NCBI RefSeq assembly: GCF_008189285.1
Contig: NZ_CP043315.1
Coordinates: forward strand, 390,001-422,000
DNA length: 32,000 nucleotides
Origin: Candidatus Saccharimonadota bacterium
GTDB taxonomy: Bacteria > Pseudomonadota > Alphaproteobacteria > CAJXXZ01 > 1604HC
Direction: 5' to 3'
Part shown: positions 7,023-9,014 of the stretch, piece after piece
How positions within the stretch are numbered: the stretch's first letter is position 1
Layout of the letters: each line of letters opens with the position of its first letter
Program-made: the position numbers and the translations under genes
The notes under the pieces: generated by a model
The model's database searches: none
What the model was told of the DNA's origin: nothing
The model's input: only the letters and a program-made list of their open reading frames with translations

Positions 7023-9014
7023 TTAACCTTCCTGTCCTGGTAGACTAGCTACCAATCTCAATGAAACTTCTAGTTCTTCCAACTGGAAATGAGGTTTCAA
7101 AAATATTACTGCCTTGTATGCGCCTGGATTTTCTTCATCAGCCACAACTTCAATATCAGCTTCTCTCAATGGATATTTTGCTTTTACATCTTGATCACCT
7201 TGATCTGATAAGAAAACGTAACGTGCAATCCAATTATTCAAATACAACTGAATGTCATCTTTGGATTCAAAAGATCCAATTTTATCTCTCATCAACATTT
7301 TAATGTAATGAGCAAATCTAGAAACATTCAACATATATGTTAATCTAGCAGATAGCGCAGCATTTGATGTTGCTGAAGGAAGATCATACTCCTTAGGCCT
7401 TTGCGTACTTTGCGCACTGAAGAACACAGCTTTATCCGTGCCTTTATTGTGGCATAGAGAAATAAATCCAAGATCACTTAATTCTTTTTCTCTTCTATCT
7501 GTAATCATAACTTCTGTAGGACATTTCAATGCAATATCACCATATGAAGTTTTGAATGTGTAAGCTGGTAGATCTTCAACCAATCCACCACCTTCAATAC
7601 CACGAATAGCAGCTGTCCAACCATATTTTGAATATGCAGTTGTGATTCTTAATGCCATTGCGAATGCGGGGTTTCCCCAACAGAATTTAGAGTTATCCAT
7701 TCCATCAACTGATTCATTGTAATCAAATTCTTTGACAGGAATAGTATTTTGACCATAAGGCAATCTAACCAAAACTCTTGGTAAAAACAAGTTTATGTAT
7801 CTAGAGTCTTCTGTGTCTCTAAAGCTATTCCATGCAGCCAATTCAGAGCTTTCGAAAATTTTCTTCAAATCTCTTGGGACATGTAGTTCGTTATAAGATT
7901 TAAGATCAAACATATCTGGCGCTGCTGCTGCCAACAAAGGACAATGTGCTGCTGCTGCAACTTGGCTCAATTTTCTTACAAATGCAACATCAATTGGCTT
8001 TCTTCCGATATAAAAATCAGCAACTAAAGAAGAATATGGAGATCCACCTAAGGTTCCAAACTCTTCTTCATAAATTCTCTTAAATAATGTGCTTTGGTCA
8101 AACTCTGAAGCATTATCCAAATCACTCTGAACTTCATCTCTTGTTGCAGCAAACAATCTAATTTTCAAATTTTCTCCTGTTTCAGAATTCATAACAACGT
8201 AATGAACCCCTCTCCAAGATGCTTCTAATTTTTGAAATTCTACATTATGCAAAATTTCATCCAATTGCAATGAAATCTTCTCATCAATTTTTGTGATTAC
8301 ATCCATTATGTAAGGGTATAAACTAGTTTCCCCAGTAATTTCAGATGCATTTTTGCACAAAGAAGCGATCATTTTTCTATATCTAATCATAGACTCAGAA
8401 TTCTTATCTGCATTCTTTTCATCAGCAGAACTATCTGTATATAATCCACTTTCTTTGATAATTTTATCCATCTCAGGGCATGATTTAGTTGAATCTTTTG
8501 ATTCTGAAACCAATTTAGCAAGCAATCCTTTGTCAGCAACTGCTTTAGATAAAATATCATGTAAAATATTATTTGAATCTAATTTAGCTGATAAATCAAT
8601 CAACATTTCATGATCTAACAATATTTCATTCAATTGAGGGATTCCCTTAACAATACTAATTGGATTAAAATCATCCATAGTTTCAAACATCAGCTCAAGA
8701 GCTAACATTTCACTAGAAGAGCCCTTCTTTTTATTAGATTTATCTTCTTTGACATCTAGAACATTATTAATAGAAATGTTCAGTTTAGGCTTAATTGATT
8801 GCATGACATGAGAAAAATTATCCCTGTCGATGTAAACAAATTTCCTTTCTTTAAAATTTACGCGATCCTCTTGATGACCATATAAATCAGAAATAACACC
8901 TAATACAAAAGGAAGCTCTTTAGATTGAACTGCTCCTCCTGTTTCGACGTCATAGGTTATACGGACTCTAGGAGGCCTAATTCTTAACAATAATTTTTGT
9001 ATGCTTTGCTCCAT
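7023..9014 (-). CDS. tssBC: type VI secretion contractile sheath, fused small and large subunits (TssB-TssC in one ORF)
   Basis: 663 aa without a stop. The N-terminus has the TssB/VipA motifs [31 protein letters not shown] and DDFNP. The remainder has TssC/VipB motifs: [162 protein letters not shown]-type RBS lies upstream of the ATG at 9014. Confidence 0.9.
   Translation of the reverse strand: [663 protein letters not shown]

Follow-up and report, generated by a model that had tools for sequence, protein, structure and literature searches.

In characterised type VI secretion systems (T6SSs) the sheath is assembled from two separate proteins, TssB (VipA) and TssC (VipB). A stretch of 32,000 nt from the chromosome of Candidatus Cytomitobacter indipagum (NZ_CP043315.1, positions 390,001 to 422,000; the window hereafter) raises the question of whether both can be made, and can work, as one polypeptide, because a single 663-codon open reading frame (ORF) on its reverse strand, here called tssBC, had been predicted from the DNA letters to begin as TssB and to continue as a complete TssC. 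The organism, a member of the Holosporaceae, lives as an endosymbiont in a diplonemid protist and has a chromosome of 628,024 bp, and the tssBC product is identical to a GenBank protein (QEK38081.1 / WP_148980928.1) whose database name, 'contractile sheath large subunit', leaves the TssB half unnamed, which would make automated inventories liable to overlook or mis-score TssB. The original prediction also held that no natural TssB-TssC fusion was known to have been characterised, and a full-text literature search bore this out, returning no description of one and only papers on GFP tags; George et al. and a review of the Holosporales list tssB and tssC and leave the fusion unremarked. The architecture is already implicit in public databases, in precomputed Pfam domains and in NCBI 'large subunit' names. 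The analysis reported here indicates that the fusion is real, conserved, widespread and structurally explicable, and that tssBC probably encodes a functional single-chain sheath protomer that arose by stop-codon read-through.

One reading frame for both sheath subunits

The tssBC frame (7023..9014, minus strand) opens with ATG and runs for 663 aa with no internal stop, and its translation contains the motifs quoted in the prediction. When family profiles were compared with this translation, Pfam placed T6SS_VipA (PF05591) at residues 11-172 (profile 3-154/155, E 1e-39), VipB (PF05943) at residues 239-538 (profile 3-301/301, E 6e-125) and VipB_2 (PF18945) at residues 548-658 (profile 2-112/112, E 2e-42). 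The NCBIfam profiles were also matched above their curated cut-offs, TssB (TIGR03358) at residues 8-173 (profile 3-158/160, 136.5 bits against 97.25) and TssC (TIGR03355) at residues 198-659 (profile 10-473/473, 638 bits against 271.5), and the first ~170 residues, on which the prediction had staked its TssB assignment, are therefore TssB-like. Solved chains align in the same order, residues 2-156 of 9n4v_B to residues 2-166 of tssBC (E 2e-30) and residues 62-489 of 9n4v_A to residues 233-660 (428 residues, E 1e-173), and the TssB module carries columns that are invariant among 49 homologs (R13 R16 V17 T20 Y21 D22 E24). Rather than ending as a stand-alone TssB of ~160-190 aa with its own stop, the ORF runs on into TssC, so that both subunits are essentially complete, TssB before TssC, in one frame. 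These data confirmed that 7023..9014 encodes a genuine end-to-end TssB-TssC fusion.

The prediction had presented the fusion as a rarity, and in this respect it did not hold. A search of a collection of 5.8 billion proteins at the 90% clustering level was limited to the best 120 matches, and all 120 have PF05591, PF05943 and PF18945 together in a single chain (622-723 aa); among them are proteins of complete genomes that stem from independent projects, with Ca. C. primus, Ca. Nesciobacter abundans, bacterium NHP-B and metagenome-assembled genomes of Holosporaceae as sources. The 90%-identity cluster that holds the 663-aa protein itself is represented by a 44-aa fragment, and the identical protein is thus absent from these matches. 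When 1.84 billion 50%-identity representatives were searched exhaustively with HMMER, 8368 matches were obtained, and among the best 150 of them 119 have both modules in one polypeptide. Single ORFs matching both families, for which the prediction had proposed a search, are thus numerous.

Could the frame nevertheless be an error of sequencing or assembly, an indel having merged an ordinary tssB with an ordinary tssC? One error could mimic the fusion, since ten split alphaproteobacterial relatives differ from it only by a stop codon and a spacer of 6-34 nt. Against this, the same fusion is common to all five other members of the clade to which the window belongs (loci L001-L004 and L006), which holds four further closed chromosomes of ~560-620 kb, and it recurs in more than 100 independent database proteins. 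In the Cytomitobacter clade the frame is unbroken although synonymous sites are near saturation (proportion of synonymous differences, pS, 0.6-0.86), and the linker is conserved within the genus. The ratio of non-synonymous to synonymous substitution rates (dN/dS) in this clade, 0.15-0.29 over the TssB part and 0.075-0.095 over the TssC core, places both halves under strong purifying selection; the junction is under weaker constraint, although the proportion of non-synonymous differences (pN) still lies well below pS in all three comparisons involving the window (for the pair L004-L006 see below). An artefact was rejected on the strength of this conservation across relatives and of the dN/dS values, and we regard it as scarcely conceivable.

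The same data bear on the reading of tssBC as a non-functional, decaying remnant, which might be expected in a reduced endosymbiont genome (628 kb, ~30% GC) whose T6SS has been reported as 'modified' and as missing components. The dN/dS values of 0.08-0.29, the 101 columns that are invariant across 49 homologs and the confidently predicted fold described below all oppose it, a probable copy of the supposedly missing tube protein Hcp adjoins tssBC, and the T6SS is kept in almost all Holosporales genomes. Selection and conservation thus led us to reject the pseudogene, whose probability we put as near to nil.

Junction and probable origin of the fused gene

To place the junction, the sheath genes of related genomes were collected from one genome per species, which gave 25 loci (24 alphaproteobacterial and one Eisenbacteria outgroup). 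Frame analysis scored 14 of them as fused and 11 as split. In the ten split alphaproteobacterial loci the stop-to-stop frames of tssB and tssC are 6-34 nt apart, with an overlap in L019, and in the Eisenbacteria locus the gap is 121 nt. When 15 fused genes were aligned with 11 split ones, TssB of the split genes was seen to stop after '…QLQKEL…' and their TssC to begin anew with 'MAD…', and the fused genes ran straight across those columns; this put the junction of tssBC at residues ~174-181 (nt ~8495-8472), inside the range of residues 160-200 that had been predicted. An example of the split state in the literature is Ca. Bodocaedibacter vickermanii, with separate genes for TssB (513 nt), TssC (1455 nt) and an 'Hcp1-like' protein (525 nt) (PMC8163844 supplement). 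Because the fused genes align through the stop and restart of the split ones, the simplest and most likely origin of tssBC would be the loss of the tssB stop codon and in-frame read-through of a very short spacer into tssC.

A neighbour-joining gene tree, computed from 630 columns with 200 bootstraps and with the Eisenbacteria gene as root, placed the window with L001, L002, L003, L004 and L006 in an all-fused clade (bootstrap 100%). Elsewhere in the tree the fused gene of L009 nests with five split genes (100%), and a fused clade (L005 and L012-14) is sister to the split Paracaedibacteraceae clade (80%). In the same vein, P0098, a fused protein from the databases, is 76-77% identical to the split genes of L015 and L018, whose clade also contains several independent fused sequences. 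Since fused and split genes interleave, the state has on this tree switched at least three times, and the transition is easy and tolerated. The alternation among close relatives further argues that the two forms may be close to functionally equivalent.

In fused relatives the stretch that separates the TssB core from the TssC core varies in length, from almost nothing to ~300 extra residues. Inserts without a Pfam match were observed exactly at the junction, of ~300 aa in P0132, P0133 and P0145 and of ~190 aa in P0126, P0142, P0147 and P0150. Inserts of this size show that the junction, which lies in a surface domain of the sheath (Domain 3, see below), tolerates big insertions.

Predicted structure and possible recycling of the proposed single-chain sheath

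The prediction supposed that a covalent tether would constrain the 'handshake' strands between protomers, which it assigned to the TssB C-terminus and the TssC N-terminus. That premise was mistaken. Protomers are linked to one another through the TssB/VipA N-terminus and the TssC/VipB C-terminus, both in the inner domain (PMC5797969), whereas the C-terminal helices of TssB and the N-terminal helices of TssC jointly form the surface-exposed Domain 3 (PMC4632598). The tether thus joins neighbours within Domain 3 and leaves the handshake termini free.

The structure prediction that had been proposed as a check was run on the monomer. An AlphaFold2 (AF2) model built on a 49-sequence alignment had a predicted local distance difference test score (pLDDT) of 81 and a predicted template modelling score of 0.84, with disorder confined to residues 1-15, a loop at 90-100 and residues 644-663; the disordered termini would correspond to the expected linker strands, which would become ordered only in the polymer. 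Around the junction the model has helices at residues 162-171, 180-189, 199-221 and 232-255 (pLDDT ~85-90), the first two joined by a short coil (pLDDT ~85), and loops of lower confidence at 191-210, which is variable and contains indels, and at 221-230. Foldseek aligned the model to solved TssC chains (5n8n_B, 9n4v_A, 5urx, 3j9g) with template modelling (TM) scores of 0.85-0.93 and to solved TssB chains with TM 0.5-0.7, the column coverage being greater (487 against 430) for models of the extended state.

TssB wraps around TssC when the two form the canonical heterodimer, and the fusion would link neighbouring ends through a linker of ~8 residues. Because these ends are already neighbours in Domain 3, fold, inter-protomer mesh and contraction should be left unchanged, and the fusion is predicted to be structurally benign. 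We infer that tssBC polymerises and contracts as one chain; such a chain would guarantee a 1:1 TssB:TssC stoichiometry and would reproduce the topology of the single-chain sheaths of phages, pyocins and contractile injection systems (CIS), with Domain 3 as an internal insertion.

A different outcome would follow if tssBC were a precursor cleaved in the linker or in the variable loop, or if a separate TssC were made from Met182, so that the working sheath would be the usual two-chain heterodimer. The loop at 191-210 is variable, indel-rich and of lower confidence, Met182 falls, in the alignment, shortly downstream of the point where split TssC starts with 'MAD', and the 190-300 aa inserts that some relatives carry at this position are what a dispensable or exposed segment might show. 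However, no protease site or conserved cleavage motif was seen in the junction alignment, the linker between the helices at 162-171 and 180-189 is short and confidently predicted, and an internal start could not yield a free TssB. No convincing Shine-Dalgarno sequence was found upstream of Met182 (…tcatgccctgagATG), and a restart there was rejected on that ground. We consider this two-chain alternative improbable.

Taken together, domain composition, conservation, homology of the junction, repeated fused/split transitions and the predicted fold are established here, and they favour the single-chain protomer. Several points weigh against this reading. The deep nodes of the gene tree are supported at 66-80% only; synonymous sites at the junction are saturated, so that selection on the linker is poorly measured (the pair L004-L006 gives a dN/dS of 0.69 over ~53 codons); post-translational cleavage of the 74-kDa chain in the 191-210 loop or in the linker is possible; and the published inventory of tssH, the gene for the recycling ATPase ClpV, is inconsistent between C. 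indipagum and its sister species.

The last point concerns how such a sheath would be recycled. A helix motif of the ClpV-binding type is kept in tssBC at residues 181-192, where it is now internal, and split relatives show 'LLDRIIQNGKLAR' in the same alignment columns. The ClpV-binding helix peptides described for enteroaggregative Escherichia coli (EAEC) are DSVYASLFEKINL in TssC1 and ATDDCLEEIINNTRA in TssC2 (PMC5048182). The tssBC helix matches the ClpV-binding helix of canonical TssC in position and sequence (compared with CLEEIINNTRA of EAEC TssC2), and is thus its putative counterpart. No ClpV is encoded in the window, and a motif scan of the 24 alphaproteobacterial loci, whether fused or split, found no Clp/Hsp100 ATPase within 10 kb on either side of the sheath genes, whereas in the Eisenbacteria outgroup a true ClpV (TIGR03345, 1199 bits) adjoins them. 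Published inventories list no tssH for Ca. Bodocaedibacter, and Table S3 of George et al. lists it for C. indipagum and not for C. primus or N. abundans. The tssH entry of C. indipagum could represent a ClpB that was scored as TssH; the N. abundans list in that table likewise has no tssA. A literature search for Holosporales and ClpV found no papers.

These observations admit the view that the fusion is an adaptation to the loss of ClpV recycling, the sheath firing once or being dismantled by housekeeping ClpB, for which the ClpB-dependent sheath disassembly described in Francisella is a precedent. On this view the helix would have lost its need for a terminal position once there was no ClpV to thread a free TssC N-terminus. 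The 24 loci without a nearby Clp/Hsp100, beside an outgroup that has ClpV, and the absence of tssH from the lists for Ca. Bodocaedibacter, C. primus and N. abundans agree with it. But the split Paracaedibacteraceae and Bodocaedibacter are equally without a nearby or listed ClpV, so this lack is uncorrelated with fusion; moreover, the helix motif is conserved in both forms, and tssH is listed for C. indipagum itself. We hold this adaptive account to be possible, though doubtful. Under the preferred reading, with a single chain that arose by read-through, disassembly of the tssBC sheath, if any, would proceed via the internal recognition helix or via ClpB, or would not occur.

The T6SS locus and its relation to known sheath systems

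Features of the fused gene and of the other T6SS genes in the window are collected in Table 1.

Table 1. Coordinates of the fused sheath gene, its modules and the other T6SS genes in the window
Feature	Position (nt)	Strand	Remarks
tssBC, fused T6SS sheath protomer (QEK38081.1)	7023..9014	-	single 663-codon ORF; stop codon 7023-7025
TssB/VipA module, residues 1-173	8496..9014	-	TIGR03358, PF05591; includes conserved N-terminal inter-protomer linker
Fusion junction, residues ~174-181 (KDSTKSCP-E)	8472..8495	-	alignment with split relatives
TssC N-terminal Domain-3 helices, residues 182-232	8319..8471	-	AF2 helices, junction alignment
TssC/VipB core, residues 233-663	7026..8318	-	PF05943 and PF18945; C-terminal inter-protomer linker ~644-663
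hcp/tssD, most likely (divergent, 185 aa; FZC35_01680)	6463..7020	-	annotated 'hypothetical'; 2 nt downstream of tssBC
tssF (baseplate)	738..2498	+	PF05947, E 4e-105; NCBI name TssF
tssG (baseplate)	2495..3385	+	PF06996, E 1.5e-42; NCBI name TssG

The gene that follows tssBC deserves attention because, according to George et al. and a 2025 review of the Holosporales, the inner tube protein is missing. An ORF of 170-210 aa follows tssC or tssBC in 22 of the 25 loci, a conserved hcp position, and a profile of these 22 ORFs matches the full length of solved Hcp proteins (9qpe_A, E 3.5e-12, and several Hcp1 entries); ten of them match Pfam T6SS_HCP individually. The 185-aa protein at 6463-7020 has no Pfam match by itself, and the profile of the Cytomitobacter clade alone found no solved Hcp, so that the link rests on the hhalign comparison of the Cytomitobacter/Nesciobacter subfamily with the rest of the family (98.7% probability, E 3e-16). 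These profile comparisons make a highly divergent Hcp the most likely identity of the ORF. With TssF and TssG at 738-3385 and the probable divergent hcp at 6463-7020, the window encodes core components of a T6SS subtype i (T6SS-i) locus, and further ones (tssA, E, K, L, M, vgrG and PAAR) are listed for other parts of the genome in published inventories (George et al., Table S3). Nearly all genomes of the Holosporales retain a T6SS, and the system is reported as 'modified' (George et al.; Holosporales review).

The window has a GC content of ~30% and housekeeping neighbours (ligA, tadA, radA, nusA, lgt, serS). Long ORFs without a Pfam match at E<=1e-3 lie at 23375-26299 (-, 974 aa), 27414-28802 (-, 462 aa), 20595-21959 (+, 454 aa), 9679-10938 (-, 419 aa) and 16306-17256 (-, 316 aa), and, in a symbiont genome of 628 kb in which secretion genes are abundant, are candidates for lineage-specific effectors or envelope proteins. 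In the window (28834-30917, -) and likewise in L026 (19738-21986, +), a distant fused-type relative with 54% identity, a serS gene paired with a LysM/M23-peptidase gene lies within ~10-20 kb of the fused sheath gene, which hints at long-range conservation of synteny around sheath and hcp.

Some fused relatives are extended at the N-terminus by 300-1070 aa (P0179, P0208, P0129, P0155, P0176 and P0186). The additions comprise WD40 propellers in P0179, a Ser/Thr kinase with VIT and vWA domains in P0208 and a weak TIR-like region in P0129, and the other extensions, of ~300 and ~800 aa, have no Pfam match. One such extended gene, P0271 (locus L027, 10001-12790), lies directly downstream of kinase, TIR-protein and bpMoxR AAA+ ATPase genes (3312-9997), and no baseplate genes were found within 10 kb of it. 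PADLOC gave generic kinase and TIR matches only on the L027 operon, and the paper of Kaur et al. on NTPase conflict systems does not mention sheath modules. The extensions and this setting suggest that the sheath module may have been co-opted outside the classical T6SS. A broader proposal, that single-chain TssBC proteins form a large, undescribed and repeatedly evolved class, ClpV-less in Holosporales-type symbionts and maybe co-opted outside the T6SS, strikes us as rather unlikely as a whole; in such symbionts the sheath may fire once or be recycled by ClpB through the internal helix.

Our interest in the fusion itself is only moderate, because the link joins neighbouring ends and evolution toggles the fusion freely; how single-chain sheaths are recycled is the more interesting question. 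The significance of tssBC is that a covalently single-chain T6SS sheath protomer has repeatedly been made and retained in nature. It offers a natural test of which two-chain features are essential (stoichiometry, a free TssC N-terminus for ClpV, the dynamics of Domain 3) and a template for engineering single-gene sheaths. It also corrects the T6SS inventories of the Holosporales, in which a 'TssC' label concealed the TssB half and Hcp was recorded as lacking although a probable divergent copy adjoins the sheath gene; these T6SSs are leading candidates for host manipulation across an order of protist and animal symbionts.

Among known systems, the canonical two-gene T6SS-i sheaths of Azotobacter vinelandii (TssB/TssC, 9n4v), Pseudomonas aeruginosa (TssB1/TssC1, 5n8n) and Vibrio cholerae (VipA/VipB, 3j9g and 5mxn) resemble tssBC in sequence families, fold and the N- and C-terminal linker segments, and differ in having two chains where tssBC has one; the region between the TssB and TssC cores spans 66 residues in tssBC and 31 + 61 = 92 in 9n4v. 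The split Holosporales, namely Paracaedibacteraceae UBA6184 and Ca. Bodocaedibacter vickermanii (CPBP_00985/00986/00987, tssB-tssC-hcp), belong to the same T6SS lineage as the window (49-61% identity) and have the divergent Hcp and the scattered layout, with [tssF-tssG] apart from [sheath-hcp], but they keep the stop and restart through which Cytomitobacter, Nesciobacter and their relatives read. Francisella, too, lives inside cells, has an atypical T6SS and lacks a dedicated ClpV, and its IglA and IglB are detectable as homologs of tssBC (3j9o), although they are separate proteins of T6SS subtype ii; we infer, purely by analogy, that its ClpB recycling could be a possible model for the ClpV-less Holosporales sheath.

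Single-chain contractile sheaths are found in phage T4 (gp18), R-type pyocins, the antifeeding prophage and Photorhabdus virulence cassettes (AFP/PVC), other CIS and the T6SS-iv of Amoebophilus. Like tssBC, the phage and CIS sheaths are one chain whose own N- and C-terminal strands lace the protomers together. Foldseek similarity of the model to the single-chain T4 and CIS sheaths is weak (TM ~0.3, ~10% identity), and a core fold is common to them (E ~1e-5; PMC4632598). Unlike tssBC, these sheaths have no T6SS Domain 3, and they are single-chain by ancestry, whereas tssBC would be so by secondary fusion; tssBC does not fall in the gp18-like phage_sheath family but belongs to the TssB/TssC families and keeps the Domain 3 helices. 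The fused gene thus connects the sheath of the T6SS with the one-chain topology seen in phages and CIS.

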